Part shown: positions 2,189-20,555 of the stretch, in pieces
How the letters are laid out: each line of letters starts with the position of its first letter
How positions within the stretch are numbered: the first letter of the stretch is position 1
Source of the DNA: Actinomycetes bacterium
GTDB lineage: Bacteria; Actinomycetota; Acidimicrobiia; Acidimicrobiales; Acidimicrobilacustridaceae
Length of the DNA: 64,000 nt
Reading direction: 5' to 3'
Assembly: GCA_031415655.1 (NCBI GenBank)
Contig: JANOSD010000170.1
Span: forward strand, 49,946-113,945
Notes under the pieces: model-generated
What the model was told of the DNA's origin: nothing
What the model saw: only the letters and a program-made list of their open reading frames with translations
Database searches by the model: none
Program-made: the position numbers and the translations under genes

Positions 2189-3209
2189 TCAGAGGAGGCC
2201 GGCAGCGGCGGCGAGCTCAGACAGAGGCTGGTCGGGGCGAGCGCCGAGGTGGGCAATCACCTCGGCGGCGGCGAGACCACCGAGACGGGCGCACGTCTCA
2301 AGATCGCGGCCCGTGGTGAACCCGTAAAGGAAGCCGGCGGCGAAGAGGTCGCCGGCGCCGGTGGTGTCGATGACCTTGTCGACCGGGCTCGCTCGCACGT
2401 CGTGACGGATGCCGTCGGCGGTGATGATCGTGGAACCCTTTTCACTTCGCGTCAGGCAGGCCAACTCGCAGTGGCCGGCCACCGCAGCAGCGGCCTTGTC
2501 GAAGTCGTCGGTCTCGTAGAGCGAGCAGATCTCGCTCTCGTTGGCGAAGAGGATGTCGACATGGTGTTCGGCCAGCTCGAGGAACTCGGCACGATGCCGA
2601 TCCACGCAGAACGAGTCGCTGAGCGTGAACGCCACCTTCTTGCCCGCCGCATGGGCCGCCTCCATTGCCCCCCGCATGGCCGCCTTGGCGTCATCGGCAT
2701 CCCACAGGTAACCCTCGCAATAGAGCACCTCCGCCGCCCGCACGAGGTCGAGGTTGACGTCGGCTGGCCCGATGAGGCTGGAGATCCCGAGGAAGGTGTT
2801 GAGGGTGCGCTCGGCGTCGGGGGTGACGAGGATCAAACAACGCGCCGTGGGCAACGTGTCGGCTCCGGCGGAGGGCGCGTCGTACTCCACGCCGATGGCC
2901 CGGATGTCGTGGCTGAACACCTCGCCCAACTGATCGTCGGCCACTTTCCCGATGAATGCCACGGAGCCGCCGAACGACGCGATGCCCGCCGCCGTGTTCG
3001 ACGCCGACCCGCCGCTTGATTCCAAGCCGGTGCCCATGTCGGCGTAGAGCGAAGTGGCGGTGGGGGCATCGATGAGTTGCATGGAGCCCTTGGTCATGCC
3101 GTGGTCGGCGAGAAAGGCATCGTCGGCATGGGCGATCACATCGACGATGGCATTGCCGATACAGACGACCTTGGCGGAAGGGGTCGTGGAAGAGGACGGG
3201 GCGTCAGTC
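2189..3209 (-). CDS. pfkB-family carbohydrate/nucleoside kinase (adenosine kinase-like)
   Basis: KVVCIGNAIVDV N-terminal motif and C-terminal DTTGAGDLFAAGFLYG anion-hole motif of the ribokinase/pfkB family. Start placed at internal MTDAPSS (3209). The ORF-track start at 3319 adds a low-complexity SEG-repeat extension. Confidence 0.7.
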
Positions 3210-4502
3210 ATGGGCCGAGACCCTATCGTCTTGCCTGTGGCGCCCTCCGACCCCTCCGACCCCTCCGACCCGTCGAACCCGTCGAACGACTCGAACGACC
3301 CGTCGAACGACTCGGCCACCGACCTCCTGTGCTACGTCGTGGCGCCCGGCACCGTCGACGTGGCCTTCGACGATGGTGCGAGCCTGGTTCGACTCGACGC
3401 CGGAAGGGCGCTCGCCGTCAACCGGAGCGCCTACGTGGTGTGGTTGGCCTGCGGAGACGACGACCGTGGCAGCACCCTCGGCGAGGTAGTGGCACTCGTG
3501 GCTGACGCCTTCGCCACGGATGTATCGGCGATCGAGGCGGAGGTTGCGGTCATCATCGATCGGTTGGTGGAACTCGACCTGATTCGGGTCGTGGGCGCGC
3601 CTCCCCCGGCGGGCCATACCGGGTGTGCGCCTGACGATCCTCGTGGGCGCACCCCCGAACCGATACCGAATAAACCCGATCGGTGGTGGTTGCCGATCGA
3701 GTTGAGCCCCTGCCAGAAGAACGTCGATGAACTTCCCTGGGCGGAGACGGTGTCGGTCGGTGTGGGTCGTTTCGTGGTTGGGGTGCGATGCGACTGCTCC
3801 CCGACCGCGGTGATCCTGCGTCGATTGCTGGGTGACCATGCGGTGGACGTACCCAACACGCCGGCAAACTTCTCGCTGGTGCTGGCAGCGGATGCGGGGG
3901 ATCATGGTTTCCCCCGACAGGGTCTTTACGAGGGGCGTACCTGGCTTACGTCCGACGCACGCCCCGCCCACATTCTGGGCACGTTGCTGGCACGATTGGC
4001 GGGCCTCTTGCCCACACCCGTCGGCTCGCTTCGTTTGAGCGCGATCGGGGTGGGATCGCCGCCTCCGGCCAGTTCACCGACCCCGAGCGGGTCCATGGTC
4101 GTCCTCCCTCAGTATCGGGGAGCGAGCTTCGGCGCCGCCACGGCGTGGACCGGTGCCGGCGCCGAACTCCGACCGGCGCCGTGCCTCATCACGGTGGAAG
4201 AACATCGAGTGCTCACCGTCCACGGCACCCAGAACGCCATCGAGGTCGACCCCGCAGTGGCCGCACGGCTCGGGCTCATCTCCCCGACAAGCCGTCCGCT
4301 CCACGCCATCGTGTGGCCTGGCCCGACCGTGCCGAGCACCCTGGCGGAATGCCACGCCGGGTTGGCGCCGTTTGTGCACGCTGCCCCCGACGACGACCGG
4401 GAGGCGCTGCTCCACACCCTCGCCGTGATGGTGCGGTCGGCGGCGATCCACGGGTACCCAACCGACGATCCTGTCAACGCACTCCCCCAACTCTTTCGTT
4501 GA
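3210..4502 (+). CDS. Hypothetical protein with N-terminal PqqD-like (RRE, RiPP-recognition-element-like) domain fused to ~300-aa domain of unknown function
   Basis: Residues ~40-130 (LLCYVVAPGTVDVAFDDGASLVRLDAGRALAVNRSAYVVWLACGDDDRGSTLGEVVALVADAFATDVSAIEAEVAVIIDRLVELDLIRVV) match the PqqD-family pattern. The C-terminal part has no motif I recognise. Start taken at MGRDP (3210) to avoid overlap with the pfkB gene. An N-terminal DPS/NPS repeat is encoded by 9-bp tandem repeats. Confidence 0.45.
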   Translation: MGRDPIVLPVAPSDPSDPSDPSNPSNDSNDPSNDSATDLLCYVVAPGTVDVAFDDGASLVRLDAGRALAVNRSAYVVWLACGDDDRGSTLGEVVALVADAFATDVSAIEAEVAVIIDRLVELDLIRVVGAPPPAGHTGCAPDDPRGRTPEPIPNKPDRWWLPIELSPCQKNVDELPWAETVSVGVGRFVVGVRCDCSPTAVILRRLLGDHAVDVPNTPANFSLVLAADAGDHGFPRQGLYEGRTWLTSDARPAHILGTLLARLAGLLPTPVGSLRLSAIGVGSPPPASSPTPSGSMVVLPQYRGASFGAATAWTGAGAELRPAPCLITVEEHRVLTVHGTQNAIEVDPAVAARLGLISPTSRPLHAIVWPGPTVPSTLAECHAGLAPFVHAAPDDDREALLHTLAVMVRSAAIHGYPTDDPVNALPQLFR

Positions 4503-4719
4503 GCGAAGACCGACGGGAAGCCGCCAAATGGCGAGCCCCCTATCGGCGCCGCCTCCTAGTGGTTGTCGGGATGTCCGTCCAGACACGGGGCGGCCTGGCG
4601 CCATTAGGCAAGGACGAAGCTCCGAAGGCCCCCTTGCTGCTGGGCGGCGAGGACGAGGACGCCGCGTGGCGGGATGTCCATGGCGGATCCGGGGCGGACA
4701 TGACTTCCCGGATACCCAC

Positions 4720-6477
4720 TTATACGGGCTTCAAGAAAAGAAAGAGCACGATGGCCAAAACCAACAGGATGGCGAGTGCCGCCACGATCACCATGACCAT
4801 CTTGGAACGGCCTTTGACCGGCGCGTCCGGCACGCCGGCGAGCCGCTGATACTCCGGTACTGGCGGGGGGATCGGCACCGACATCGGTGGGCCGGAGGGC
4901 ATCGGTGGCGCCGGTAGCGGGGCGACGGGTGGGGCCGGTGGTGGTGGCGGTGGCGGTGGCGGTGGCGGTGGGGCCGGTGGCGCGGCGACCGCGAGTGGCG
5001 CTCCGGGTGGATCGGCGGGCACCGGTGGTGCTGGCGAGGGAGGAAGGAAATCGACACGAACGGTGCCATCACCTTCGGAGATAAGCCCCGCCTCCATCAT
5101 GCGAATCAACTCTTCGGCACGAGATCCGGGGGCCTGGCCCGCGGGGGCGGGGGCGACGGCGGGCGGTGCGGGCGCCGGGCCCGCGGGCGGCGGGGGGATG
5201 CCCGCAGGCAGCGGAGCCAGAACCGGGCTCGGAGAAAGCCCCACCGCCGGGCTCACCACCGGTGCCGGACCGGCCGGAGGCGGCGGGATATCGGGCCGGG
5301 CCACCGGGACCGGAGGAGGGGGTGGTGCCGGCGCGGGTGCCGGAGCGACGGACGGAGATGCGACCGCCGCGCCACTAGGCGCCACCTCGCTGATGCCAGT
5401 ACCCATGCGAGGATGAAGTGATGTGGCTCGCACCACCTGGGCAGCGTTCGGGGTGACTCTCGTATTCGAACTGGTGGCGCGTTCGGTGATGGCGACGATC
5501 GCCGCCGCGCCGTGCACATCCACGCCGCTCCCGCGCAGCCATCCTGTACCGAGCGCCATCGTGGTGGCCGACGCCAACGTGAGGCCGAAGTCGTGAGCGG
5601 AGACGTAGCGATCGGCGGGCTCGCGGGCGATGGCCCGCATCACCGCTTCGGCGATCGGGGGCGGGATATCGGACCGCACCGAATCAATCGGGACCGGTGG
5701 GTTGCGAAGTTTGGCGGTGAGCTGCTGGAGCGGCTCTTCAGAATCGGGGAACGGAAGCTGGCCGGTGAGCAGTTCGTAGAGCATCACGCCACAGGCATAG
5801 ATATCGACGCCAGGACCGAGATCCGTGCCGAGGGCCTGCTCCGGTGCCATGTACGCCGGGGTGCCAACCACTTGCCCGGCCACCGTGAGCGAGGTGGATG
5901 CCTGATCGAGCACTTTGGCGATTCCGAAGTCGCTCAGCTTCAACGCCCCAGATTGCGCGAACAGAAAGTTTTCGGGCTTGACGTCGCGATGGATGACACC
6001 GTGGCTGTGGGCATGCTCAAGCGCCGACGAGGCAACCAGCAGGATTGCGCACGCCTGCGGCAACTGGATGCCCTCACCCACAAATCGATCCCAGAGCGTG
6101 CCGGACTGCATGCGCTCCATCACGATCAGGCAGAGCCCATCGTGGTCGACGAAATCGTAGAGGGGAACGATGTGGGGGTGGTCGAGTTTGGCGACTGTGC
6201 GGGCTTCTTCCAGGAAACGTTGCCGCACCGACGGATCGGCAGCGAACGCACGCGGAAGTTGCTTGACCGCGACTTGGCGGCCGAGTTGACGGTGCGTGGC
6301 TGCGAGCACCACACCCCAACCACCACGACCGAGTTCTTCGCCGATGTCGTAGCCAGGGAGGGCAGCCGCTACCAGGTTGCGATCGAAGATCACGATGAGA
6401 GTGTAGAGCCAAGCGCGGCAACGGTCGACGACATGCCCGTCTCGCCGCCACCGAGCACCGGTCTGTCCGGCCTGCAT
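4720..6477 (-). CDS. Hanks-type Ser/Thr protein kinase, with Pro-rich linker and C-terminal transmembrane anchor
   Basis: GRGGWGVV glycine loop, VAVK, HRDVKPEN catalytic loop, DFG, TPAYMAPE activation segment. Long PPPP linker with a poly-Pro run. Terminal hydrophobic segment MVMVIVAALAILLVLAIVLFLFL. The true start may be an internal GTG (~6390). Confidence 0.85.
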   Translation of the reverse strand: MQAGQTGARWRRDGHVVDRCRAWLYTLIVIFDRNLVAAALPGYDIGEELGRGGWGVVLAATHRQLGRQVAVKQLPRAFAADPSVRQRFLEEARTVAKLDHPHIVPLYDFVDHDGLCLIVMERMQSGTLWDRFVGEGIQLPQACAILLVASSALEHAHSHGVIHRDVKPENFLFAQSGALKLSDFGIAKVLDQASTSLTVAGQVVGTPAYMAPEQALGTDLGPGVDIYACGVMLYELLTGQLPFPDSEEPLQQLTAKLRNPPVPIDSVRSDIPPPIAEAVMRAIAREPADRYVSAHDFGLTLASATTMALGTGWLRGSGVDVHGAAAIVAITERATSSNTRVTPNAAQVVRATSLHPRMGTGISEVAPSGAAVASPSVAPAPAPAPPPPPVPVARPDIPPPPAGPAPVVSPAVGLSPSPVLAPLPAGIPPPPAGPAPAPPAVAPAPAGQAPGSRAEELIRMMEAGLISEGDGTVRVDFLPPSPAPPVPADPPGAPLAVAAPPAPPPPPPPPPPPPAPPVAPLPAPPMPSGPPMSVPIPPPVPEYQRLAGVPDAPVKGRSKMVMVIVAALAILLVLAIVLFLFLKPV

Positions 6478-6527
6478 TCTCGAACACCGCGCCGCGGCGG
6501 GAACGAGCGATCTATGCTCCCCGGTTC

Positions 6528-9500
6528 GTGGCCTACAACCTCCGCATCGAGGAACCGGGTGACGAGCCGCGGATCGTCACCATCGACACTGTCGCCGAGA
6601 TCGGCCGACACGGCGACGGTGTCCGGCTCGTTGACCCCACCGTCTCCCGCCGACACGTTCGGCTCGAGGTACGCGCCGACGGGGTCGCCGTCTCCGACCT
6701 CGACAGCACCTACGGCACCTACGTGCGCGGCCATAAGGTCACCACGCCCGTCTTGCTCCAAGACGGCGAGCGGTTGATCGCCGGCGAAACCACTATTACC
6801 CTTCTCGGACCCGCCGGAGCAGACCGCCCCAGCTTTGGTGCCCCCGCCGATACCGGAGCGCCGGCGTTCCCGACGGCGTCCCCGAGCGACGCTCCGACCC
6901 CCAGCGCGCTCCACGCCACCGGTCAGTTCGCCGCACCAACGGCCACCCCCGCACCACCGGTGACCGCTCCGCCCCCACTCGGCGCCACGCCCCCACCGCC
7001 CGGTTCGACGCCCTCCATCGATCCCACGATGCTGGCATCGATCCCCTACGACTCCCCCGTCGCCCCTTCGGTTCCCTCCCAACCTTCGCCCACGGCGCCG
7101 CCCCCGGGAATGCCGCAATCGCCGACAACTCTCGGCCGCCCCACCTCCGACGGCCTGGCATCGATCGACGCCGACGGTGCCGCCATTGTGAAGTACCGAC
7201 CCGGAAGTGCCGGAGAAAAGGCGGCCAAGGCGGTCGCCGTTCGCGTCAAGAAAGCCCGTCGCCGGCTCGAAGGTTTCGGCTCCGAGGGTTGGGGCACGAT
7301 TCCCACGATTTGCCTCGTCGACCCGTTCGCTGATCCCTCCACGGGTGAACTCGTGCTCGACGGCACCATCGTTGATGCCGAACGCAACGAGATCTGGATG
7401 GTGGTCACCCCCGAATCGCCTCCCGAGCCACCCGAACGGGCACTCACCCTGCTTTTCGGTGCCGCTCTGCCCGCTGCGGGCGAACTCGATGTGCTGCTTG
7501 AGGGCTACGGGCTTTGGCTCGCCAAGACACCGCGCCCCGACGAACAACTCTCGGGGGTGGCCATCGTTCCGCCCACGATGGCCGAGGGGGAACTCCGGTC
7601 GATCCTGTCGCTTTCCCTCGTGTATTTCCTCCTCGATCGCGAGAAAGAAGACGTGCTCCGGCGCACGCTCAGCAGCGCCCAGCCGGGCCGGCTCGACCAC
7701 GCCTTCCAGGAGCACTACGGCCTTCCGATTGCGTCGCTCATGCAGGCGTGGATGGAGAAAGTCGGCGGCGACGGCCCCACCGTAAAGACCGGCCAATTCA
7801 TGAAACTGGCCTGGCGGTATCTTCGGCCCTACAAGAAGAAGCAGGCCGAAGTCTTCTTCTACATGCTCTTCTCGTTGGCCTTTGCCACCGTGTTCCCGTT
7901 CGTCACCAAGGCGCTGTTCGACACCGTCCTTCCGGAAGCAATCGCCAACCAGCAAGTCGGCGGGATCGCCTCGCTGCTCGGCGGCCTCGGCATCGCGTTC
8001 CTCGTGTCGCTCTTGGCCGGCCTCCGACAGGCCTACCAGTCGGCTTGGATCAGCGGTGCGGTGGTGCGTGATCTCCGCTCGCAGATGTTCGGGAAGCTCC
8101 AGTCGTTAGGCACCGGTTGGTATAAACGCCATCAGCAAGGCGACGTGCTCACCCGGCTTTTCAACGACGTGATGGTGCTCGAGCAGGGCCTCACCACCAC
8201 CCTTCGCGAAGGCATCTTCCAGTCACTCTCGTTGGTGGTGTCATCGATTGTGATGCTCACCCTGAACCCATTGCTGGGCATCATCGTGCTGATCGGTGCA
8301 CCGCTCGTGGCCGTCGTCTACAAGACCATGGCCACCGGTGCGCAGAGCCGTGGGCTCGCCGTTCAGCAGGACACCGGCGCCCTGATGAACATCGCCGCCG
8401 AAAACTACGACGCCGAACCGGTGGTCAAACTTTTCTCGCTGCAGAATCGAGAGGTCGGTCGATTCCAACAGTTGTCGGAACGGCTGTTTCGGTCCGAGCG
8501 ACGACTCAACCTCTACGGCGGTTTATTCGGGCTGTCGGTCAACACCATCGTCACCCTTCTCCGTTTGGTGATCCTCGGCCTCGGGGCCTACCTCATCGTG
8601 CAGGGATCGTTCACCGTGGGTGGCTTGATCGCTTTCCTGGGGGTGATGGGCGAGGTGCTCGCTCCAGTGACCACCCTCACCAGCGTGGGGCAACAAGTGC
8701 AGCAGTCAAGCGGTGCGCTCTATCGCATCGAAGAGATCCTCAACGAACAACCCGAGTTGGTGGAGCCACCGGATGCCCAGACGCTCCCGCGCCTTGCGCA
8801 AGAGATCCGTATCCAAGGGGTCGACTTCTCCTACAACGCCGAACGCCAGATCCTCACCGGCGTCGATGCCGTGATCCCGGCCGGGCAACGGGTGGCGTTC
8901 GTGGGGGCATCCGGGTCCGGTAAGAGCACGATCTTTCAACTGCTCATGCGTCTCTACGACCCCGACGAAGGTGCGGTCCTCTACGACGGCGTCGACGCGC
9001 GTGCGGTCACCGTCGACTCGCTTCGGGGACAGCTCGGGGTGGTCTTCCAGGACAACTTCCTCTTCGACACCACCCTGCGAGAGAACATCGCCATGGGCAA
9101 ACCGGGTTGCACCGACGAAGAGGTGGTCGCCGCCGCCCAAGCCGCTGAAGTACACACCTTTATCGACCAACTGCCGCGTGGCTACGACACCACCGTGGGT
9201 GAGCGAGGCGGCATGCTGTCAGGGGGTCAGCGGCAGCGAGTGGCCATCGCCCGGGCGCTCGTGCGTAACCCACAGATCTTGCTGCTCGACGAAGCCACCT
9301 CGGCCCTCGACCCCAAGACGGAGCGGGCCATCATCGGCACGCTCAACCGGGTGGGGCAGGGTCGAACAACGGTGGCGATTACCCACCGCCTCACCTCAAT
9401 CAGCGGCTACGACACGATCTTCGTCGTGCATGAAGGCCGGATTGCGGAGCAGGGCGACCATCACCAACTCATCGCCGCCGGCGGGCTCTACGCTCGTTTG

Positions 9501-10196
9501 TGGGCCGAACAAACCGGGCAGGCGATCCCGCAGGCTCAGCCCAGCTTCGATGCGCTCGACGCCATCTCGCGAGTACCGATCTTCCACGCCCTCACGCCCG
9601 ATCGGTTGGCCCCGATCGTGCAACGACTCGTCGCGCAAGAGCTTGCGGCCGGCGCCACGATGCCGGATTCCGAAGGAGCATTGGTACTGCTCGCCCGAGG
9701 CCGTGGCCGGGTGCTCACCCCCGACGGCGTGGCGGGCTGGTCAATCAATGCCGAACTCGGCCCAGGCGACACGTTCGGAGTATCGGCACTGCTCAACGGC
9801 GCCACGGGATCCTGCCTACAGGCGGTGGAGCCAACCACGGTCCTCATCCTCGACACCGACATCATCGCCGGAATCATGGCCAGCGAGCCCACGGTGGCGG
9901 CGGCGTTCGACGGCAACCGGGAACTGTCGGCGGCGCCCCGGGGCGGCACCCGACTCACCCGAGTCACCACTGCGCTTTCTCGTGATGAGCTGGTAGCGGC
10001 ACTCGCCGCTGGTGGCGGCGGCCCCGGCAGCACTCCTGATACGGGGGGCGCCGTGGTCCCCGCCGCACCCGGAGGAATCTACGTTCCTCCCTCGCAACCG
10101 GTGCTGCCCGTCACCCCGATGTCGCCGAGTCGGGCCACGCTCGGCATCGCACCGCCTTCCTCCTCCCCCGACTCCCCCGACAACGAACACTTCTGA
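6528..10196 (+). CDS. Multidomain ABC exporter: N-terminal FHA domain, uncharacterised ~200-aa domain, 6-TM type-I exporter TMD, ABC ATPase, C-terminal cyclic-nucleotide-binding-like domain
   Basis: FHA signature (GRHGDGVRLVDPTVSRRHVRLEV...STYGTYVRG). Six predicted TM helices. Walker A GASGSGKST, ABC signature LSGGQRQRVAIARAL, Walker B ILLLDEATSALD, H-loop ITHRL. C-terminal cNMP-binding-like segment (PIFHALTPDRL...GPGDTFGVSALLNG). Pro-rich tails. Divergent from the kinase gene, ~50-bp spacer. Confidence 0.85.
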   Translation: MAYNLRIEEPGDEPRIVTIDTVAEIGRHGDGVRLVDPTVSRRHVRLEVRADGVAVSDLDSTYGTYVRGHKVTTPVLLQDGERLIAGETTITLLGPAGADRPSFGAPADTGAPAFPTASPSDAPTPSALHATGQFAAPTATPAPPVTAPPPLGATPPPPGSTPSIDPTMLASIPYDSPVAPSVPSQPSPTAPPPGMPQSPTTLGRPTSDGLASIDADGAAIVKYRPGSAGEKAAKAVAVRVKKARRRLEGFGSEGWGTIPTICLVDPFADPSTGELVLDGTIVDAERNEIWMVVTPESPPEPPERALTLLFGAALPAAGELDVLLEGYGLWLAKTPRPDEQLSGVAIVPPTMAEGELRSILSLSLVYFLLDREKEDVLRRTLSSAQPGRLDHAFQEHYGLPIASLMQAWMEKVGGDGPTVKTGQFMKLAWRYLRPYKKKQAEVFFYMLFSLAFATVFPFVTKALFDTVLPEAIANQQVGGIASLLGGLGIAFLVSLLAGLRQAYQSAWISGAVVRDLRSQMFGKLQSLGTGWYKRHQQGDVLTRLFNDVMVLEQGLTTTLREGIFQSLSLVVSSIVMLTLNPLLGIIVLIGAPLVAVVYKTMATGAQSRGLAVQQDTGALMNIAAENYDAEPVVKLFSLQNREVGRFQQLSERLFRSERRLNLYGGLFGLSVNTIVTLLRLVILGLGAYLIVQGSFTVGGLIAFLGVMGEVLAPVTTLTSVGQQVQQSSGALYRIEEILNEQPELVEPPDAQTLPRLAQEIRIQGVDFSYNAERQILTGVDAVIPAGQRVAFVGASGSGKSTIFQLLMRLYDPDEGAVLYDGVDARAVTVDSLRGQLGVVFQDNFLFDTTLRENIAMGKPGCTDEEVVAAAQAAEVHTFIDQLPRGYDTTVGERGGMLSGGQRQRVAIARALVRNPQILLLDEATSALDPKTERAIIGTLNRVGQGRTTVAITHRLTSISGYDTIFVVHEGRIAEQGDHHQLIAAGGLYARLWAEQTGQAIPQAQPSFDALDAISRVPIFHALTPDRLAPIVQRLVAQELAAGATMPDSEGALVLLARGRGRVLTPDGVAGWSINAELGPGDTFGVSALLNGATGSCLQAVEPTTVLILDTDIIAGIMASEPTVAAAFDGNRELSAAPRGGTRLTRVTTALSRDELVAALAAGGGGPGSTPDTGGAVVPAAPGGIYVPPSQPVLPVTPMSPSRATLGIAPPSSSPDSPDNEHF

Positions 10197-10207
10197 GAGG
10201 TCAACTC

Positions 10208-10792
10208 ATGTCCGATCCCTCGACCGTCACCCGCCAGGCGCGGCCCACCCTCGAAGCGATTTGTGTCACGAGTCGTGAAGCCACCACGGCGTCGACGGCA
10301 TGGATGATGGCGCTCGACGACGGTGAGCTGCTCATCGTGGCTGCGGCCTGCAGCGATCCGGCCTTCGGAGCTTCGCTGGTGGGTCGACGTTTTCCGCTTT
10401 CCGATGGCACCGCCGCGATGGTGTTACAGAGTGGTCAACCGGTCGCCCTCCAACCCGGTTCGGCCTCGGTGGCGTCCGATGCCATCGCCACCGCGGTGCT
10501 CGGTCGGCAACCCGCCAGCATTGTTTGTGTGCCCTGCGCCGACGACGAGCGGGTCGTCGGGGTACTGCAACTTGTCGACCGTGCCGATGGCGGTCCCTTC
10601 GGATTCGACGACCTCGAAATGTTGTCGATGCTCGGCACCGTCGCCGGTGCGTCACTGGTCGAATCGGGAGCCGGTCTGCTCGACGTTCCGTCCCCCGAAG
10701 CGCTCGGTCGCGATCTCGCCTCACTGGCTGATGCCGATCCCACCCGGTATGCCGCGCTGGCGCGGGTCATCGAGGTCATGCTCGGACAGTGA
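10208..10792 (+). CDS. GAF-domain protein
   Basis: 194 aa. GAF-like fold signature (VGVLQLVDRADGGPFGFDDLEMLSMLGTVAGASL). Starts 12 bp after the ABC gene stop. Overlaps the next gene by 4 bp. Confidence 0.55.
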   Translation: MSDPSTVTRQARPTLEAICVTSREATTASTAWMMALDDGELLIVAAACSDPAFGASLVGRRFPLSDGTAAMVLQSGQPVALQPGSASVASDAIATAVLGRQPASIVCVPCADDERVVGVLQLVDRADGGPFGFDDLEMLSMLGTVAGASLVESGAGLLDVPSPEALGRDLASLADADPTRYAALARVIEVMLGQ

Positions 10793-11769
10793 CCGACACC
10801 GGCACCAACGACGAACCCCGCCCCGCATGGTCGCGCGAATCGCTCGTCCTTCGCCTGGAGAAGGTGGAGACGATCGAGGAGCTCTCGCGCGAGTGGGCAT
10901 GGGGCGACGCCACCGGCAAAGGGGTTCGCGTCGCCATCGTCGACAGCGGCATCGACAGCACCCACCCGGCGCTCGAAGGTTGCGTCGATGCCGATGCCGG
11001 TGTGGTGATCACCCCCTCGAAGGAAGAGGGCGGGCAGCCCGTGGTGGTGCAGGGCAACCACCCCGACAGCTTCGGCCACGGAACGGCGTGCGCCGGCATC
11101 ATCCACTCCCTCGCTCCCGCGGCGGAGATCACCAGTGTGAAGGTGCTCGGCGGCATGCTGAGCGGCACCTCCGACATCTTCGTGGCCGGCCTTCGTTGGG
11201 CCATCGAACAACGTTTCGATGTGGTCAACCTTTCGCTCGGCAGCCGCAAACGTGACTGGGCATTGGCCTTCCACGAGGTGTGCGATGAGGCCTACTTCAA
11301 AGGTTCGTTTCTCGTAACCGCAGCCAACAACGTGAGCCGGGTCACCTACCCGTCACTGTTCGCATCGGTGGCGAGTGTGGCATCACACACCGGTACCGAC
11401 CCCTGGCGTTTCCACTACAACCCGGAACCCCCAACGGAGTTCCTCGCCCGAGGCATCAACGTGGAGGTGCCGTGGCTAAACCATGGCACCATCACCACTA
11501 CCGGCAACTCCTTCGCCGCTCCCCACGTCTCGGGTCTCGCCGCGCTCATTCGTTCGAAACACCGCGACCTTCAGCCGTTTCAACTCAAGACGGTGCTGTG
11601 GGCCACCGCCAACAACGTGCAGGAAGCCCAAGCACGGGGGGGTGCCGTGCAAGCCCCCGAGGTCGCCGGGCGGTTCACCCAAGCCCTACGTCTCACCGGC
11701 GCGCTGTCCACCAGCCCTCGCTCCACCATGAGCCTGCGGTCCATCCAACAACAACTCGCCGACCCCTGA
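10789..11769 (+). CDS. Subtilisin-like serine peptidase (S8), no signal peptide (intracellular)
   Basis: Catalytic triad motifs VAIVDSGID (Asp), HGTACAG (His), GNSFAAPHVSG (Ser). No N-terminal hydrophobic signal sequence. Start overlaps the GAF gene stop (ATGA). Confidence 0.8.
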   Translation: MTDTGTNDEPRPAWSRESLVLRLEKVETIEELSREWAWGDATGKGVRVAIVDSGIDSTHPALEGCVDADAGVVITPSKEEGGQPVVVQGNHPDSFGHGTACAGIIHSLAPAAEITSVKVLGGMLSGTSDIFVAGLRWAIEQRFDVVNLSLGSRKRDWALAFHEVCDEAYFKGSFLVTAANNVSRVTYPSLFASVASVASHTGTDPWRFHYNPEPPTEFLARGINVEVPWLNHGTITTTGNSFAAPHVSGLAALIRSKHRDLQPFQLKTVLWATANNVQEAQARGGAVQAPEVAGRFTQALRLTGALSTSPRSTMSLRSIQQQLADP

Positions 11770-11795: not shown

Positions 11796-13400
11796 TCACA
11801 TGCGGCCCAGCCATGGCCGAGTGCGTTCCGCAAAGGGGTGCGGCGAGATCGAATTGGTCCGGTCAATCACCGCTGTGATCTTGCGTTCGTCCCAGCGTTC
11901 CCACGACTGTCCGGCGAAATCGCCGGGTGTGCCGGTACGGGCGAAACAGGCCCAGGATTGCGCCATCGTTCGGTGGACCGATCGGAGCCCGACTCCCCGG
12001 TTGGCCATGAACGTCTGGAGGGACTTCCACGGTGCCAAATTGCCGAACACGTACGCCTGCTCGGCCGCGTGGACGGCACCGAGTTCGTTGCCTTCCGCGT
12101 GAAACGCAAACAGGTACACATACACCGGAGCACTTTGTTCACGCAGTGCATCCGCGAACCGCATCGCCGGTACCGTGAACTTGTGGTCCGTATTTATGGT
12201 GTCGTGCAACACGGTGGCATCGGGATCGTCTGCTGTCGCGGCCGACAGCGTCTTGCGATAGGTATCGATCACCGACGAGTGGTCGCCGCCGAAGAATCGA
12301 GTGGCCATCGATGCAAGGAGCTCAGGCGCTTGGGCGCGGCTGTGCAGACCGACGAAGTTCCACTCGTCGGTAGTTGTTCCGATGATGGTAGGAACCGGGC
12401 GAGCGGCGCCGCTTTGCATTGCCTCTATGGGCGAGGTTGTCAGTAGGTCGCCGTCCACCACCACTCCGAACGGGAGAAACGCCTCGATCGAAGGGGCGAG
12501 CGCATCACCCACGCCCACGGTGAATGTCGCGGCCCGCTGTGCCGCCATCAGGTCAGAGACAGGCACCTGTTGGAGATCAGCGATCGTTCGTGTCTGCAGT
12601 TTGTCGAGCACCAGATCGGCCACGCGCTCAGCGCGTTCCACCGGCAAGGCGAAGTGGCCGGCACCGCTTTGCAACACGGCCTGCTGGAACAGCTCGTCGG
12701 CGCGAGGAATGGCCAACATCGCGGCGATGCTCATCGCCCCGGCGGACGCTCCCACTGCGGTGACATTCGTGGGGTTGCCGCCGAACGCCGCGATGTTGTG
12801 GTGTACCCACTTGAGCGCGGCAATCTGGTCGAGCAACCCCACGTTCCCCGTGATCTGCTCTCCCCCGGGTAGGTGCGCGAGCCGAAGCCATCCGAGAGCA
12901 CCGAGCCGATAGTTGATGGTCACGACGATGACGTCGTGCGCTCCGACCAACAGCGACGGATCGAACGGCTGCCGGCTCCCGGACCCGTCCACGAAGCCGC
13001 CGCCGTGAATCCACACAAGGACCGGCCGGCCAGGCTTCGCCTCAGCAAGAACCGAGACGTTCAGATAGAGGCAGTCCTCGTGAATGACCGATCGGCGCGG
13101 GCCGAACGGCATCCAGAACGCGTTGCCCTGTTGTGGACCCTCCGGAGCGAAGCGGTGTCCATCACGAATGCCGTCCCACGACGGAGCGGGCCCCGGAGGA
13201 AGAAACCGGCGTGCTCCGATCGGGGCCTCGGCGTAGGGAATCGACCGATAGGCAACCGTCTGACCCACGCGCCAGCCGCGGACCTTGCCTTGGGCGAGGT
13301 GGACCGTATCGACGGCGCGCCGGATCGAGGTGCCGCGCTGCGCCGCATTGATGGCCGCGACAACAGTGCGCTCGCCGACCCTTTTCGCCGTACCCGCCAT
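11796..13400 (-). CDS. Carboxylesterase, type B (para-nitrobenzyl esterase-like)
   Basis: IPYAEAPIGARRF N-terminal motif, IHGGGF oxyanion motif, nucleophile elbow GASAGA. Start set at internal MAGTAKRV (13400); the longer ORF-track start adds an Arg-rich extension. Confidence 0.75.
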   Translation of the reverse strand: MAGTAKRVGERTVVAAINAAQRGTSIRRAVDTVHLAQGKVRGWRVGQTVAYRSIPYAEAPIGARRFLPPGPAPSWDGIRDGHRFAPEGPQQGNAFWMPFGPRRSVIHEDCLYLNVSVLAEAKPGRPVLVWIHGGGFVDGSGSRQPFDPSLLVGAHDVIVVTINYRLGALGWLRLAHLPGGEQITGNVGLLDQIAALKWVHHNIAAFGGNPTNVTAVGASAGAMSIAAMLAIPRADELFQQAVLQSGAGHFALPVERAERVADLVLDKLQTRTIADLQQVPVSDLMAAQRAATFTVGVGDALAPSIEAFLPFGVVVDGDLLTTSPIEAMQSGAARPVPTIIGTTTDEWNFVGLHSRAQAPELLASMATRFFGGDHSSVIDTYRKTLSAATADDPDATVLHDTINTDHKFTVPAMRFADALREQSAPVYVYLFAFHAEGNELGAVHAAEQAYVFGNLAPWKSLQTFMANRGVGLRSVHRTMAQSWACFARTGTPGDFAGQSWERWDERKITAVIDRTNSISPHPFAERTRPWLGRM

Positions 13401-13405
13401 CGCCG

Positions 13406-14310
13406 TCAATCGAGATCGTCCGGGAAATAGTCCCAGGAGCCGCTGCTGCCGCGAAACGTATAGGCCACGCTGGCGGCAATCTGCATTGGTGGTGTGGCCA
13501 ACCACGGCCCGAGGAAGTAGTTGCCCATCGGTACCCCGGTCCCGGCGCCGAACAGTCCTGGCGGTTTGCTTCCGAAGTACCGCTCCCAGTAGCGCTCGGA
13601 GAAGAACACGGCGCAATAGTCGAGCAGTACGTACTCATCGATGAACACGTACCCAAAAAGATTGACGTGGTTCCAGAGATTGATCAGCACATCGTGCATG
13701 CTCGCCTGATAGTCGACGTCGATGAACAGCATGGCAATCCGCTCCGTATGGAGCGGCAGGGTGTCGGAGAACCACCCTTTTCGGAAGGTGCACACGTCGA
13801 TGCAGCCGTACTTGGTGATGTTCGCCCGCACCACGTCGAGGCTCCCGTGGAGCCCACCTGCGCTCTCCACCACCCCGAACTTGTCGCCCTCCACGGCGTC
13901 GGGAAGGCCCTCGAACGAGTCGTACAGGATGAGCTCGCGACCCACGATCTGACACACGAGCGACAGGTTGAGGGCGGATCCCCCGAGGAACGATCCGCAC
14001 TCCACCACGGCGCCCTCCTGCTCCGGCGGAATCTCGAGAAGCTTCGCCGCCATCGCCAAGTGCGCCTTGAACGACGTGGCCGTCACCACCTGCGTGGAGT
14101 TCCGATAGATCCGCCAGCCGAGCGCAAACTTCTTCCGCCACGTCATGCCATACGAGGGATGGATACGGCGGTTGTAGAAGAGGGCGGCCACCGTCAGCGG
14201 CAACGTGACGAACTCGTGCACGATCCGGAACCCGTGGTGAACCACGACCTCGAGCGTCGACGTCTCGTGCGGCGTCAGGTCGCGAGCGCGCACGACCTTG
14301 GGGAACGACA
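13406..14310 (-). CDS. TylF/MycF-family (macrocin O-methyltransferase-like) SAM-dependent methyltransferase
   Basis: Family-like motifs VVECGSFLGGSALNLSL and LFIDVDYQAS. Start set at MSFPKVV (14310). Separated by 5 bp from the downstream esterase, likely an operon. Confidence 0.65.
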
Positions 14311-14584
14311 TGGCGGCGATCCTACGAGCTGACCGTTGCCGCGAATCGAACCGGGGCCCGCGGCACGGGATGGGGTGGCAGGTGCCAACCGTCAAGCCGA
14401 GCAAGTCAGCTTGAATCGCCGTATCCGCAACCCAGGCTTTCTGTCCTGGCCTTCGACGCGGGAGCCAACCGACCCAGGTGGGACCGATCCGCCGAACCCG
14501 GCGATCTTCACCCGGACGGCGGCAACCCAACCTCTCGACCCCGCGAAACTCTTTTTCTCGGCATTCGTCGCCCTCCCTTCGACA

Positions 14585-17690: not shown

Positions 17691-17819
17691 TCACGACGGG
17701 GATCAAACGAGCGCCGCAGCAGTGGTGACCGACTTCGGCCACGCACCAATTGTAGTGGCACGGCAACCGTTTTCCTTGCACCCGATCTCGGCGGCGATGG
17801 TTGACCACCTCCTGTGAGG

Positions 17820-20555
17820 TCAGCCAAACAAGACCGCGGCCGGCGCCGGCCGCCCGAAAAGGTAGCCCTGCACGTACCGACAACCCAGCTCCGCAAGGCA
17901 CGCCGCCGGGGCTTCGGTTTCCACGCCTTCAGCGGTGACGCTGATCCCAAGGTCGTCGGCAAGGGTGATCACGAGCTCGACAATGCGATGACTGTCGCCG
18001 TCGCCCGGAAGCCCACTCACAAAGGAACGATCGATCTTCAGTACCTGAACGGGCAGGCGATGGAGCCAGGCCATCGACGAGTAGCCGGTGCCGAAATCGT
18101 CGAGGATCACCGCAAAACCCAACGCACGGATCTCGAGGAGCGTGGCGACGGTGAGCTCGGGATCGGCCATCGCCGCGGACTCGGTGATCTCGAATCGAAT
18201 ACGGGCGGGATCTACACGATCCGCCGCCCGGCGAAGGTCGGGCAACAGTTCGGACCCGACAAGGTGAAGGGGCGACAGATTCACCGACACCGAGAACCCC
18301 GCCGCATCGCCCGTTCGCTCTGCGAACACTCCTCGTCGTTCCCAGTCGTGGAGGTGTTCGATGCTCTGGTTGAGCACCACGAGGTCTATCTCATCGATGA
18401 GCCCGGTCTGCTCCGCCAGTGGAATGAAAAGATCGGGAGCGACCACGCCGCGTTCGGGGTGCTGCCATCGCACCAACGCCTCTGCTCCCACCACTGCACG
18501 GTCGGCAAGGCGAATGATCGGCTGGAACCATGCCTCGAGCTCATCTTCTTCACAGCCCCGACGGAGGTCGGCCACCGCCGAGCGTCGCGCCTTCACGCGC
18601 TCATCAAGCTCAGCTCCATGGCTCAGCGATCGATCACCGCCGGCGGTCTGCCCGGTGCGCGCCGCCAGCTCCGCTCTCCGGAGCAACTCCGTGGGGGCCA
18701 CATCACCCATGGCCGTACCCACCGTTGCCGTCATGTTGTAGGCGGTGGCATCGATCACGATCTCGTGACGCAGTGTCTCTACCAGCCGACTCGCCACCAT
18801 CTCCAACCGCGCCGGGTGAGCGGCGCCCCCGACCAGCGCCACCGCAAAGGCCCGCGCACCGATACGGGCCACTTCATCGACGTCGGCCATCTCCGCGGTG
18901 ATTCGCTTGGCGATCTCTACCAGCAGACGATCCATCGAGGTGTCGTCGAGTGCAGCGCTGAGAAGGTCGGCGTCGTCGACGACCACGGCCGCGATCCCCA
19001 CGGAGGGCCGGGCCGACGGTGGGGCGGCAACCACCCGCTCGTCGAGCAGTTCCACCAGGCGAGCCCGGGTGGGCAAGGCGGTGAGAAGATCGTGGCGGGC
19101 GTCACGAGCGGCCTGCTGGTGGGCCTCTTGCACTTCCGTTCGATCAGCGGTCACCACCAAGACGTCGTCGAGTGTCCCATCGGCCCGAAACAACGGGAGT
19201 GCCGTGGACGAGAACCAATGCACTCTGGAGGCGATGTCGGCGCGCCATTCGAACGACGTCGACACCCCGGACGCGACCACGGCCGGACCGAACAGGTCCC
19301 AACGTTCGCGCAAGAGGCCGGTCACCGGTCCATGGACGGGCGGCCGATGATGATCGCCGCCAACACGTACCGAGCCGTCGAGCGTGAACTCGGTGACATG
19401 GTTCGACGCGTGCTCCACCAGCCGAGCGAATCGATCCTCCCCTTCGACCAACGACGCAACGAGATCCTCATGGGTGCGCCGCACGGCACCGGCATAGAGG
19501 GCGGCAAGCGCTCCGGTAAGCAACACGATCTGCATATCGAGAAGGGCGTCGTCGGGCAGGGCCACGCGCAGCGCAAACGACGCCAATGCCGTCGACACGA
19601 GAATGCCCGATGCGGCGAAGAGGAGATCCTGCCGGAGTGCCACCCAGAGCAGGGGTACGACTGCGAACACCAACAAGGCCGCCGACGCCCCGCGCCCCAA
19701 CGCTCCCACCACCACGACCGGCACGAGAGAGACCACCGCAACCTGAAGCGCCGCTTCGGATCGGCCCGCCCGGGTGGACGGAAGATGCACCCGCTGACGC
19801 CCATACCGTCGTGCGTACGCTCCAAGCAGCATGAGGGGCACCATGGCCGCAATCGCCAGTGCGTCGCCCACCCAGAACACGCGGGCATCGACGAGCGCAT
19901 CGAGCACCGAAACGTCGTCGGCCACGTCGTCGACCACGGCGTCGACGAGCGCGACGCCGAACGCCGCCAGCAATGGCGCGCCAACTACCGCTATGCCGCC
20001 GAACCACCCGAACTCGCGGGTGTGGGCGCGTCCGATACCGAGCCGGCGGAGGATCACGGCCGCTCCTGTGTAACAACCCACGATCAAGGCCGCTCGGGCC
20101 ATCACCGCAGGCGGGCTGGCCTGCCATGCCCTCGGGATGACCCAGGCAATCGTGAGCACCCGAACCAGGAAGGCCCACGGGGCGAACTTCGGCCCAAAGA
20201 CGAGCAGCAGGCCCATCATGAAAGCAGCAGGCGGGTACCAGGGCGAGAATCCGTCGGGAGGGCTGAACGCCTTCACGGCCCAGGCCGAACCGCCGTAGAG
20301 CACCGCGAAGCTCAGCGCGACCACGATGGCGTCCCGCACGCTGGTGAGCGGGACGCCGGTAAGCCACCGGCTGCGGTCGTCCTCGATGCGACGAACCGTA
20401 CCGCCGATTCCGCATCGCTGCGCCGGAGAACCACCCAGGAGCCCGGTCCACCCAACACGTTGTTGGGGTCGTGTCACGGCGGTCACCGTCGAGCCGCATC
20501 GCCGGTAGTGTCGCCCTGTGAGCGACAACCCGCACCGACTTCCCCGCACCATCAT
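17820..20555 (-). CDS. Membrane sensor protein with degenerate GGDEF and intact EAL domain (putative c-di-GMP phosphodiesterase)
   Basis: N-terminal multi-TM region. GGDEF position reads RIGARAF (degenerate). EAL domain motifs EALVRW, DDFGTGYSS, KIDRSF. The 5' end overlaps the pepN start in the ORF track; the true start is probably an internal GTG (~20400). Confidence 0.7.
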   Translation of the reverse strand: MMVRGSRCGLSLTGRHYRRCGSTVTAVTRPQQRVGWTGLLGGSPAQRCGIGGTVRRIEDDRSRWLTGVPLTSVRDAIVVALSFAVLYGGSAWAVKAFSPPDGFSPWYPPAAFMMGLLLVFGPKFAPWAFLVRVLTIAWVIPRAWQASPPAVMARAALIVGCYTGAAVILRRLGIGRAHTREFGWFGGIAVVGAPLLAAFGVALVDAVVDDVADDVSVLDALVDARVFWVGDALAIAAMVPLMLLGAYARRYGRQRVHLPSTRAGRSEAALQVAVVSLVPVVVVGALGRGASAALLVFAVVPLLWVALRQDLLFAASGILVSTALASFALRVALPDDALLDMQIVLLTGALAALYAGAVRRTHEDLVASLVEGEDRFARLVEHASNHVTEFTLDGSVRVGGDHHRPPVHGPVTGLLRERWDLFGPAVVASGVSTSFEWRADIASRVHWFSSTALPLFRADGTLDDVLVVTADRTEVQEAHQQAARDARHDLLTALPTRARLVELLDERVVAAPPSARPSVGIAAVVVDDADLLSAALDDTSMDRLLVEIAKRITAEMADVDEVARIGARAFAVALVGGAAHPARLEMVASRLVETLRHEIVIDATAYNMTATVGTAMGDVAPTELLRRAELAARTGQTAGGDRSLSHGAELDERVKARRSAVADLRRGCEEDELEAWFQPIIRLADRAVVGAEALVRWQHPERGVVAPDLFIPLAEQTGLIDEIDLVVLNQSIEHLHDWERRGVFAERTGDAAGFSVSVNLSPLHLVGSELLPDLRRAADRVDPARIRFEITESAAMADPELTVATLLEIRALGFAVILDDFGTGYSSMAWLHRLPVQVLKIDRSFVSGLPGDGDSHRIVELVITLADDLGISVTAEGVETEAPAACLAELGCRYVQGYLFGRPAPAAVLFG

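Follow-up and report, generated by a model that had tools for sequence, protein, structure and literature searches.

A conserved kinase, FHA-ABC exporter, GAF and subtilase module of Acidimicrobiia, most likely a phosphorylation-switched export machine

In the 64,000-nucleotide stretch of contig JANOSD010000170.1 analyzed here (hereafter, the window), which comes from a bacterium of the order Acidimicrobiales, four neighboring genes encode a Hanks-type Ser/Thr protein kinase, an ABC exporter that combines an N-terminal FHA domain with a C-terminal domain resembling cyclic nucleotide-binding (CNB) domains, a small GAF-domain protein, and a subtilase of the S8 family. These four genes form a conserved unit, an uncharacterised module of soil and water actinobacteria that is, most likely, a phosphorylation-switched export machine. 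Neither this architecture nor the module was found described in the literature that we searched. Its new elements are a gate domain with the predicted fold of a catalytically dead zinc metalloprotease (the pseudo-zincin, or X domain), a degenerate CNB domain, an obligate pair of the GAF protein and the subtilase, and short motifs shared by the tails of the exporter and the subtilase.

A conserved four-gene unit

The original prediction for this region, made by a model from the nucleotide sequence alone, had named these genes, their domain content and their tight coupling, and all of this was borne out by the list of open reading frames (ORFs), in which all four are present at the predicted coordinates, by Pfam, and by the junctions read directly. 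On the minus strand, the kinase ORF occupies positions 4720-6477, with an ATG at 6477 (Pkinase, E 3e-51). Divergent from it, on the plus strand, lies the gene of the 1222-aa exporter (6528..10196), identified as a half-transporter by domain searches and the alignment of homologues, followed on the same strand by the genes of the stand-alone, 194-aa GAF protein (10208..10792; GAF_2, E 4e-10) and the 326-aa subtilase (10789..11769; Peptidase_S8, E 2e-31). The exporter stop codon at 10194-10196 is followed by GAGAGG and then by the GAF start codon, ATG, at 10208, such that the 11-nt spacer (10197-10207) contains a ribosome-binding site, and the GAF stop codon overlaps the subtilase start within GTGA at 10789-10792. 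With this short gap and this overlap, the exporter, GAF and subtilase genes are translationally coupled. The exporter start agrees with the N-termini of its homologues in the alignment. The kinase orthologues, as well as the fusion protein P0251 described below, align from residue 29 of the kinase ORF, and therefore the probable kinase start is the GTG at 6393 (probable gene extent 4720..6393, minus strand). With this revised start, the divergent intergenic region, presumably a shared promoter region (6394..6527), is 134 bp long rather than 50 bp.

Conservation of the unit was assessed in 53 loci from species-representative genomes, which were retrieved with the alignment of the X domain (alignment A2) and compared with the window proteins by tblastn. 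Among the 43 loci with sufficient downstream DNA, 36 encode the GAF protein and the subtilase directly after the exporter. Of the 29 loci for which wide flanks are available, 25 contain an orthologue of the kinase, with an identity of at least 45%. The kinase gene is located upstream on the same strand in 13 of these 25 loci, upstream and divergent, as in the window, in 5, directly after the subtilase gene in 4, and downstream in the convergent orientation in 3. When all ORFs were compared, just these four genes were common to the window and the 53 related loci; the flanking genes for a PqqD-domain protein, a PfkB kinase, a carboxylesterase and a TylF-like methyltransferase were conserved in none of them. 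In a reverse test, all three subtilase homologues picked regardless of their genomic context were found to lie immediately behind an FHA-ABC gene, together with the GAF gene.

Two independent gene fusions point in the same direction. Protein P0251 is a single, 1523-aa chain with the order kinase-FHA-X-ABC-CNB, the kinase portion of which shares 47% identity with the window kinase from residue 1 on. In the cultured species Smaragdicoccus niigatensis, P0276 joins FHA-X-ABC-CNB-GAF in one in-frame chain, followed by the subtilase, an arrangement found on 3 contigs. Because of the synteny counts, the reverse test and the two fusions, chance grouping is excluded: the explanation that the four genes are adjacent by accident and function independently, which can draw on the variable position of the kinase gene and on nothing else, has a practically negligible probability. 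The original prediction had reckoned with a random juxtaposition that would be syntenic nowhere else, but the module recurs with the frequencies given above, and none of the findings named there as speaking against it was made. It had also asked whether the genes co-occur across Actinobacteria: the module recurs in many genomes, but mainly in those of Acidimicrobiia rather than in Actinobacteria generally.

A 1309-aa gene call in locus L057 that appeared to be another exporter-GAF fusion was rejected as a gene-calling artefact, the GAF frame being separate there. At the Smaragdicoccus niigatensis locus (L060), positions 3530-5559 on the minus strand, divergently upstream of the fusion gene, contain a radical SAM gene together with two small ORFs of 112 and 108 aa; there is no kinase gene within 6 kb, and this radical SAM/small-ORF arrangement was not seen in the other loci.

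Domains and conserved residues of the four proteins

The exporter consists, from the N-terminus, of the FHA domain, a Pro-rich linker, the pseudo-zincin, a six-helix transmembrane domain (TMD), a nucleotide-binding domain (NBD), the CNB-like domain and a disordered tail. With the whole protein as the query, we found more than 100 clusters of homologues with the same FHA...ABC...CNB architecture, mostly from metagenome-assembled genomes (MAGs) of Acidimicrobiia. The FHA domain, a phosphothreonine (pThr)-binding domain (aa 25-83; 6600..6776, plus strand), scores 45.5 bits against the Pfam cut-off of 20.7, and of its pThr-binding residues, S40 and H43 are invariant, and G26 and R27 nearly so, across 28 homologues. 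In the FHA loop at aa 60-64, the window protein has STYGT, compared with the consensus STNGT; the same Tyr is found in four of its closest relatives (P0001, P0003, P0004 and P0006), and Phe in P0008. This replacement of the loop Asn may alter recognition of the pThr+1 position of the bound peptide in the subclade of the window. The linker that follows (aa ~95-203; 6810..7136, plus strand; columns 124-455 of alignment A1) is a low-complexity region rich in Pro, Thr and Ser, the length of which differs between homologues; by analogy with the linker of the mycobacterial exporter Rv1747, as presented in PMC8339232, it is a candidate phospho-acceptor region.

The TMD (aa 443-707; 7854..8648, plus strand; PF00664, ABC_membrane, E 8e-32) and the NBD (aa ~760-995; 8805..9512, plus strand; PF00005, E 2e-34, with ABC_tran at aa 777-925) have the organization of the MsbA/HlyB/TAP-type half-transporters, namely, a PF00664 six-helix TMD followed by the NBD. 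In the latter, the Walker A motif GASGSGKST, the signature LSGGQRQR, the Walker B motif LLLDEATSALD and the H-loop are intact, and these motifs are invariant in the alignment of homologues. The best NCBIfam matches of the ABC core are MsbA, HlyB, TAP2, HepA and the NHLP-bacteriocin exporters, all below the family cut-offs (best score 414.5 bits against a cut-off of 880), as is the match to a cyanophycin-associated exporter. Assignment of a substrate class from these matches was ruled out because all are below cut-off, and lipid, peptide and protein exporters score alike.

The X domain (aa 204-435; 7137..7832, plus strand) is strongly conserved among the exporter homologues. Pfam assigned the window domain to no family and gave just weak, partial Peptidase_MA_2 matches for other members; Pfam alone being insufficient, the fold was assigned from structure prediction. 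The predicted structure includes the beta-sheet, the active-site helix and the Glu-helix of the thermolysin-like fold, that is, a gluzincin metalloprotease fold without the zinc-binding histidines. None of 12 members inspected contains HExxH or HxxEH, and there is no invariant His among the 20 sequences of alignment A2. The helix at the position of the active site reads LxLLFGAALP, and the following helix retains a conserved E-G-Y-G-L, which would correspond to the position of the third zinc ligand of gluzincins. Because both the HExxH motif and a conserved His are missing, the X domain is, according to the model, a catalytically dead pseudo-peptidase of the zincin fold. It ends a few residues before the first transmembrane (TM) helix, on the cytoplasmic side, and thus is found at the same place as the C39 domain of peptidase-containing ABC transporters (PCATs) or the inactive C39-like domain of HlyB-type exporters. 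The domain is rare, with 190 matches at E<=1e-3 among 1.84 billion representative proteins in a full HMMER scan; the matches examined were ABC exporters or kinase-FHA proteins, so that the domain appears to be almost confined to this exporter family. No paper describing such a pseudo-zincin domain was found in the literature search.

The CNB-like domain (aa ~1013-1127; 9564..9908, plus strand) scores 20.7 bits with Pfam cNMP_binding over aa 1051-1118, below the threshold of 27.5. The fold is backed by a phmmer match to the cyclic nucleotide (cNMP) domain of MloK1 (E 6e-5 over 115 residues), and PF00027 is recorded in about half of the exporter homologues. Thus, the CNB domain that the original prediction placed on the exporter stands as a fold, although the window protein itself does not reach the Pfam cut-off. 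The further proposal that the exporter is gated by a cyclic nucleotide was not supported: the phosphate-binding cassette reads FGVSALLNGATGSC in the window, compared with FGEMALISGEPRSA in MloK1, with Glu replaced by Val and Arg by Gly at two positions that contact the cNMP, and in the consensus of the entire FHA-bearing clade, FGLxALLGxxxGxxLxA, the cassette Glu and Arg are both absent. More distant relatives without the FHA domain keep the canonical cassette FGEIALLxDxPRTA and score 77-83 bits in Pfam. For the window exporter, the sequence gives no support to gating by cAMP or cGMP. A gene for a CRP-family regulator precedes the FHA-X-ABC-CNB gene at four loci (L052, positions 4720-8747, L036, L054 and L037), which come from three Cryptosporangium genomes and a Micromonosporaceae MAG, and a gene in which an adenylate/guanylate cyclase is joined to an AAA_16 (STAND-like) ATPase is also located upstream; these loci lack the GAF and subtilase genes and a close kinase gene, and represent an alternative, cNMP-linked version of the module. 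Because the FHA-less relatives keep the cassette, and CRP and cyclase genes neighbor some of the orthologues, the exporter scaffold has a cNMP-related history.

The catalytic domain of the kinase (ORF aa 43-306; 5560..6351, minus strand), matched in both Pfam and NCBIfam, contains the motifs VAVK, HRDVKPEN, DFG and APE expected of a Hanks-type kinase. A long, Pro-rich linker connects it to the C-terminal membrane anchor, a single TM helix identified by a hydropathy scan (aa 556-574; 4756..4812, minus strand) and followed by 11 residues. The description of the kinase as tail-anchored in the original prediction thus fits the window protein but not its orthologues, in which the C-terminal part comprises either one TM helix with 30 to 600 further residues, forming variable domains, or four TM helices; the tail-anchored form is particular to the window.

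The GAF protein scores above both applicable Pfam thresholds (GAF_2, 40.4 bits against 28.6; GAF, 38.8 bits against 22.4) and has no NCBIfam family match. Across 38 aligned orthologues, it has a conserved C-terminal helical extension of ~45 aa and the motifs SGQP, VPC and FxFDDVE; these conserved residues do not identify a ligand. The protein is small and stand-alone in all orthologues except for the Smaragdicoccus fusion.

The subtilase is the best-conserved protein of the module, 56-84% identical across the related loci. The catalytic triad Asp52/His97/Ser241 and the oxyanion Asn N181 are invariant in the family, the free cysteines C65, C101 and C165 are conserved, and no signal peptide, propeptide or TM segment was found. 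Judging by the residues retained, the kinase, the NBD, the FHA domain and the subtilase all keep the groups required for catalysis or binding. The AlphaFold2 model of the subtilase has a confident core and disordered N- and C-terminal tails. Two stretches that do not vary within the family, aa 180-194 and 214-221 (with NNV..YPSLFAS and NPEPPTEFLARG among them), nonetheless have a predicted local distance difference test score <50, and may fold just against a partner. Assignment of the enzyme as a mycosin of the type VII secretion system, QhpE or LanP was rejected: the scores are below the NCBIfam cut-offs (111 bits against 278.75 for the mycosin; 110.6 bits against 165 for QhpE), and the respective partner genes (ESX; qhpABCD; lanA/lanM) are not conserved. 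Unlike the window subtilase, mycosins carry a TM anchor and a signal peptide. The 519-aa protein P0223, encoded on a contig that also contains the exporter homologue P0088, consists of a subtilase orthologue, a C-terminal Ser/Thr/Arg repeat (TSMRG x3) and a fragment resembling the C-lobe of a kinase; it is either a real subtilase-pseudokinase fusion or a merged gene call at a locus where the kinase gene follows the subtilase gene. An alternative interpretation of P0223 as a GAF-subtilase fusion was rejected, given the order of a subtilase followed by the kinase-like fragment.

The disordered C-terminal tails of the exporter and the subtilase share the short motif G-x-R-L-S/T-R. In the exporter, the tail of which is otherwise variable, the motif is GGTRLTRVT (aa 1139-1147; 9942..9968, plus strand), with the family consensus GGxRL[S/T]RxT, and the tails also end in VRRxTGS. 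The similar motif of the subtilase is AGRFTQALR (aa 293-301; 11665..11691, plus strand), with the family consensus AGRL[S/T]R[V/I/M]; A293, G294 and R295 are invariant or nearly so, and the tails also carry RA[S/T]xALR. The core R[LF][ST]R is present in 26 of the 54 exporter and 17 of the 38 subtilase orthologues, compared with 1-3 occurrences among the orthologues of the kinase, the GAF protein or the ECF (extracytoplasmic function) sigma factor discussed below and a background of 0.015 per 100 aa. The motif is absent from the tails of the FHA-less relatives and is kept in the Cryptosporangium exporters that lack the subtilase. These motifs could be short linear docking or phospho-acceptor sites.

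Proposed mechanism and competing explanations

We propose that the four genes encode one machine, an ABC exporter switched through pThr and the FHA domain and equipped with a dedicated cytoplasmic protease; this is our preferred, still tentative reading, the chances of which we consider to be just short of even. The membrane-anchored kinase would phosphorylate Thr residues in the disordered linker or the tails of the homodimeric exporter, and perhaps the subtilase as well. The FHA domain of the exporter itself would bind these pThr sites and thereby turn transport on or off, as proposed by analogy to the action of PknF on Rv1747. The dead zincin might keep its peptide-binding groove and serve as a docking platform at the cytoplasmic gate, similarly to the C39-like domains of HlyB-type exporters, and the G-x-R-L-S/T-R tails of the subtilase and the exporter would be likely docking or pseudo-substrate elements. 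The GAF protein would work at the C-terminus of the exporter, as the fusion suggests, controlling or escorting the subtilase, and the latter would trim a protein or peptide cargo encoded elsewhere right before export, in the manner of QhpE before QhpF, or of C39 in PCATs. In this scheme, the agent and targets of phosphorylation, the docking interactions and the identity of the cargo are inferred. A more specific form of the model, possible but rather unlikely in all its parts, is a hitherto undescribed class of protein or peptide export machine in which the dead metalloprotease domain is a cargo gate that is shut by the exporter's own C-terminal pseudo-substrate tail and opened by the kinase and the FHA domain, admitting either the subtilase with the same tail or cargo cut by the subtilase, with the GAF protein as an escorting chaperone. 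If true, it would amount to a Sec/Tat-independent, phosphorylation-gated secretion route in monoderm actinobacteria.

Several observations weigh against a single pThr-switched machine. The position of the kinase gene and the C-terminal region of the kinase vary, and 7 relatives lack the GAF and subtilase genes, 4 of these lacking also the kinase, such that the parts are separable. No phosphatase is linked to the module, the docking role of the pseudo-zincin comes from analogy only, and the NCBIfam scores, all below the cut-offs, do not allow the ABC core to be placed in any family of peptide, lipid or drug exporters. FHA domains prefer pThr; because the conserved position of the tail motif is more often Ser than Thr, this motif may not be an FHA ligand. 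Finally, no cargo gene is conserved beside the module, and neither a small precursor-like ORF nor an RNA was found around it, which leaves processing before export without an identified substrate. The original prediction had pointed to 4500-4720 and 10196-10210 as places where a substrate ORF might be encoded, but no credible small ORF was found at either: a search of 4503-4719 yielded just Arg-rich ORFs typical of high-GC noise, none of them conserved, and 10197-10207 is the spacer with the ribosome-binding site. Its broader suggestion of peptide or protein processing and export remains plausible, without a substrate gene conserved next to the module.

An alternative that keeps the transporter but reassigns the subtilase is that the latter is itself the cargo of a signal-peptide-independent route resembling type I secretion, with the pseudo-zincin reading the subtilase tail, the GAF protein acting as a cytoplasmic chaperone or inhibitor by which the subtilase is kept inactive up to its export, and the exporter tail being autoinhibitory until released by the kinase and the FHA domain. 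Type I secretion signals lie in the C-terminal region, and the subtilase, while devoid of a signal peptide, has a disordered C-terminal tail with a conserved motif, the same motif being present in the exporter tail. In its place ahead of the TMD, the dead peptidase domain is comparable to the C39-like domain with which HlyB-type exporters bind substrate (PMC10986499), the GAF protein of Smaragdicoccus is fused to the exporter directly before the subtilase, and the low-confidence invariant segments of the subtilase look as if they needed a partner to fold. Against the HlyB-type and PrtD-type ABC proteins of type I secretion, the scores of the ABC core are 370 and 255 bits, respectively, but these are below the cut-offs and no better than that for MsbA. 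Moreover, the propeptide that secreted subtilisins usually need is missing, the conserved free cysteines are typical of cytoplasmic proteins, and the Cryptosporangium relatives retain the exporter tail motif without any subtilase; on balance, we regard export of the subtilase as unlikely. Somewhat less probable still is that the main function of the module is to control an ECF sigma factor. In this case, the kinase would phosphorylate the sigma factor or its partner, the GAF-regulated subtilase would remove an inhibitor, and the ABC protein would be a sensor or a scaffold. Of the 29 relatives with wide flanks, 19 have an orthologous gene for an ECF sigma factor (40-62% identity) within 10 kb; such a gene also lies ahead of the kinase-ABC fusion gene and is present in L057 and L058, and kinase-associated ECF groups without anti-sigma factors are known (PMC7826278). 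However, the gene is missing from the entire 64-kb window and likewise from the relatives closest to it (L002-L004 and L024), an anti-sigma factor is not conserved, and the fully intact and conserved NBD motifs argue for real ATP-driven transport.

Cyclic-nucleotide gating of the exporter as in the original prediction, with cAMP or cGMP acting at the C-terminal domain and/or on the GAF protein, is improbable. In its favor, the CNB fold is present, its cassette is canonical in the FHA-less relatives, CRP-type genes neighbor the exporter both in L055 and, together with the cyclase gene, in Cryptosporangium and the Micromonosporaceae MAG, and GAF domains are able to bind cNMPs. Nevertheless, the Glu and Arg that contact the ribose and the phosphate are replaced throughout the FHA-bearing clade, Cryptosporangium included, and no cyclase is linked to the module in the Acidimicrobiia loci. 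Furthermore, the CNB domain of HetC binds ppGpp and no cyclic nucleotide (PMC10986499), so that the fold does not predict the ligand. We consider it very improbable that the module is the processing and export part of a cluster for a bacteriocin or another peptide that is ribosomally synthesized and then modified post-translationally (RiPP), of the LanP/LanT or QhpE/QhpF kind, with the precursor and the modifying enzymes encoded nearby. QhpE is among the best NCBIfam matches of the subtilase, and the exporter scores 349 and 301 bits against NHLP bacteriocin exporters, but all these scores fall short of the respective cut-offs. The 482-aa PqqD-domain protein encoded upstream, at 3054-4502, and the radical SAM gene with small ORFs in Smaragdicoccus would fit such a cluster; yet, the PqqD-domain gene is conserved in no related locus, and neither are the esterase, methyltransferase and sugar kinase genes, no precursor-like ORF was found, and no modifying enzyme is common to the more than 50 loci.

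Related systems and neighboring genes

The pThr-switched exporter that we favor resembles the PknF-Rv1747 pair of Mycobacterium tuberculosis in that the gene of a Hanks kinase adjoins the gene of an ABC exporter with an N-terminal FHA region and a disordered, Thr-containing linker. Unlike the window exporter, which has one FHA domain and the TMD-then-NBD order of the MsbA/HlyB type, Rv1747 has two FHA domains and lacks the zincin-like and CNB-like domains as well as GAF and S8 partners. The domain order of Rv1747 is NBD-then-TMD, as in ABCG-like transporters. Because of the different ABC type, the single FHA domain and the extra domains, the module is not a member of the PknF-Rv1747 family but is similar to it in regulatory logic; in this sense, the comparison made in the original prediction is apt, and the kinase-FHA-ABC fusion P0251 ties the kinase to the exporter. 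According to two published accounts (PMC3138270, PMC8339232), phosphorylation positively regulates transport by Rv1747. This is the one well-studied case of control of an ABC exporter by a Ser/Thr protein kinase and FHA domains.

PCATs, exporters with C39-like domains, and HetC of Nostoc share with the window exporter a cytoplasmic peptidase-fold domain directly N-terminal to the TMD of an MsbA/HlyB-type transporter. The inactive C39-like domain of HlyB-type exporters still binds substrate, and HetC carries a regulatory domain of the CNB fold (PMC10986499), which is N-terminal in HetC, whereas the CNB-like domain of the window exporter is C-terminal. The window protein is not a PCAT: its domain has a zincin fold rather than that of the C39 cysteine protease, and no C39 match was obtained in Pfam; proteolysis, if any, would come from the separate subtilase, and FHA/kinase control has not been described for PCATs. 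With QhpE/QhpF and LanP/LanT, the module shares a small cytoplasmic S8 enzyme without a signal peptide encoded together with an efflux ABC transporter. QhpE is a cytoplasmic subtilisin that trims its cargo before translocation by the ABC exporter QhpF (PMC7876137), but the module loci show no conservation of a QhpC-like precursor, a radical SAM enzyme or a flavoprotein. The nearest relatives outside the clade are the FHA-less proteins P0309, P0314, P0319, P0338 and P0361, which have the same order of pseudo-zincin, TMD, NBD and C-terminal CNB domain, differing by the lack of the FHA domain and the G-x-R-L-S/T-R tail and by the canonical cNMP cassette; the one locus seen has a CRP-type neighbor and no kinase, GAF or subtilase gene. 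The succession from relatives with the canonical cassette to the FHA/kinase clade with the degenerate one may exemplify regulatory rewiring of a single transporter scaffold.

The module thus combines three ideas that have been studied separately, namely, Ser/Thr kinase and FHA control, a dead peptidase as a dock, and a cytoplasmic subtilase acting with an exporter. Although Acidimicrobiia abound in soil, freshwater, marine sediment and activated sludge, their genetics is almost unstudied, and the retention of the four genes in dozens of their genomes suggests that the module probably has an important envelope or signaling function. The fused version of Smaragdicoccus niigatensis and the cyclase-linked version of Cryptosporangium offer cultured entry points that make these questions experimentally testable. 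An alternative identification of the module as an anti-phage defense system was rejected given that PADLOC returned generic matches to kinase, ABC-ATPase and subtilase domains alone.

At many of the related loci, an ECF sigma gene adjoins the kinase gene without an obvious anti-sigma gene, as in groups ECF43, ECF59-62, ECF217, ECF267 and ECF283 (PMC7826278), a feature that the window does not share. The sigma gene is often located directly beside the exporter or subtilase gene. It was mapped in L005 (4834-5682, minus strand), L009 (8594-9343, plus strand), L019 (4172-5329, minus strand), L056 (2652-3359, plus strand), L057 (484-1209, minus strand) and L058 (4232-4831, plus strand), among others. 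In L019, two envelope proteins of unknown family are encoded between the sigma and kinase genes (5006-6337 and 6372-7284, plus strand), and such a pair is present also in L005, L007, L016, L018, L032, L048 and L053, from MAGs of Microthrixaceae and Acidimicrobiaceae. One of these proteins combines a signal peptide with repeats, a Thr-rich stalk and an anchor at the C-terminus, and the other spans the membrane several times and has an acidic tail.

Within the window, a scan for promoters and terminators yielded counts not above those in shuffled sequence and found nothing, including any sigma-70 consensus site, in the divergent region between the kinase and exporter genes, and no Rfam family reached its gathering score. 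The 482-aa ORF at 3054-4502 (plus strand), convergent with the kinase gene, contains a PqqD-like domain of the RiPP recognition element type (aa 111-177, 29.3 bits) and nothing else recognizable; it has no NCBIfam family and is absent beside the module in every related locus. On the other side, convergent to the subtilase gene, the region 11796-14530 (minus strand) encodes a carboxylesterase of 606 aa (COesterase, E 5e-101) as well as a TylF-like O-methyltransferase; both are found also on L001, the window's own short metagenome contig, and are not conserved with the module elsewhere. Two long ORFs have no Pfam match, one of 953 aa at 17814-20675 (plus strand), which is opposed by an antisense ORF of comparable length at 17820-20555 (minus strand), and one of 602 aa at 34535-36343 (minus strand). 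The rest of the window consists of ordinary chromosomal genes, such as those for a DEAD-box helicase, aminopeptidase N and glycogen enzymes.

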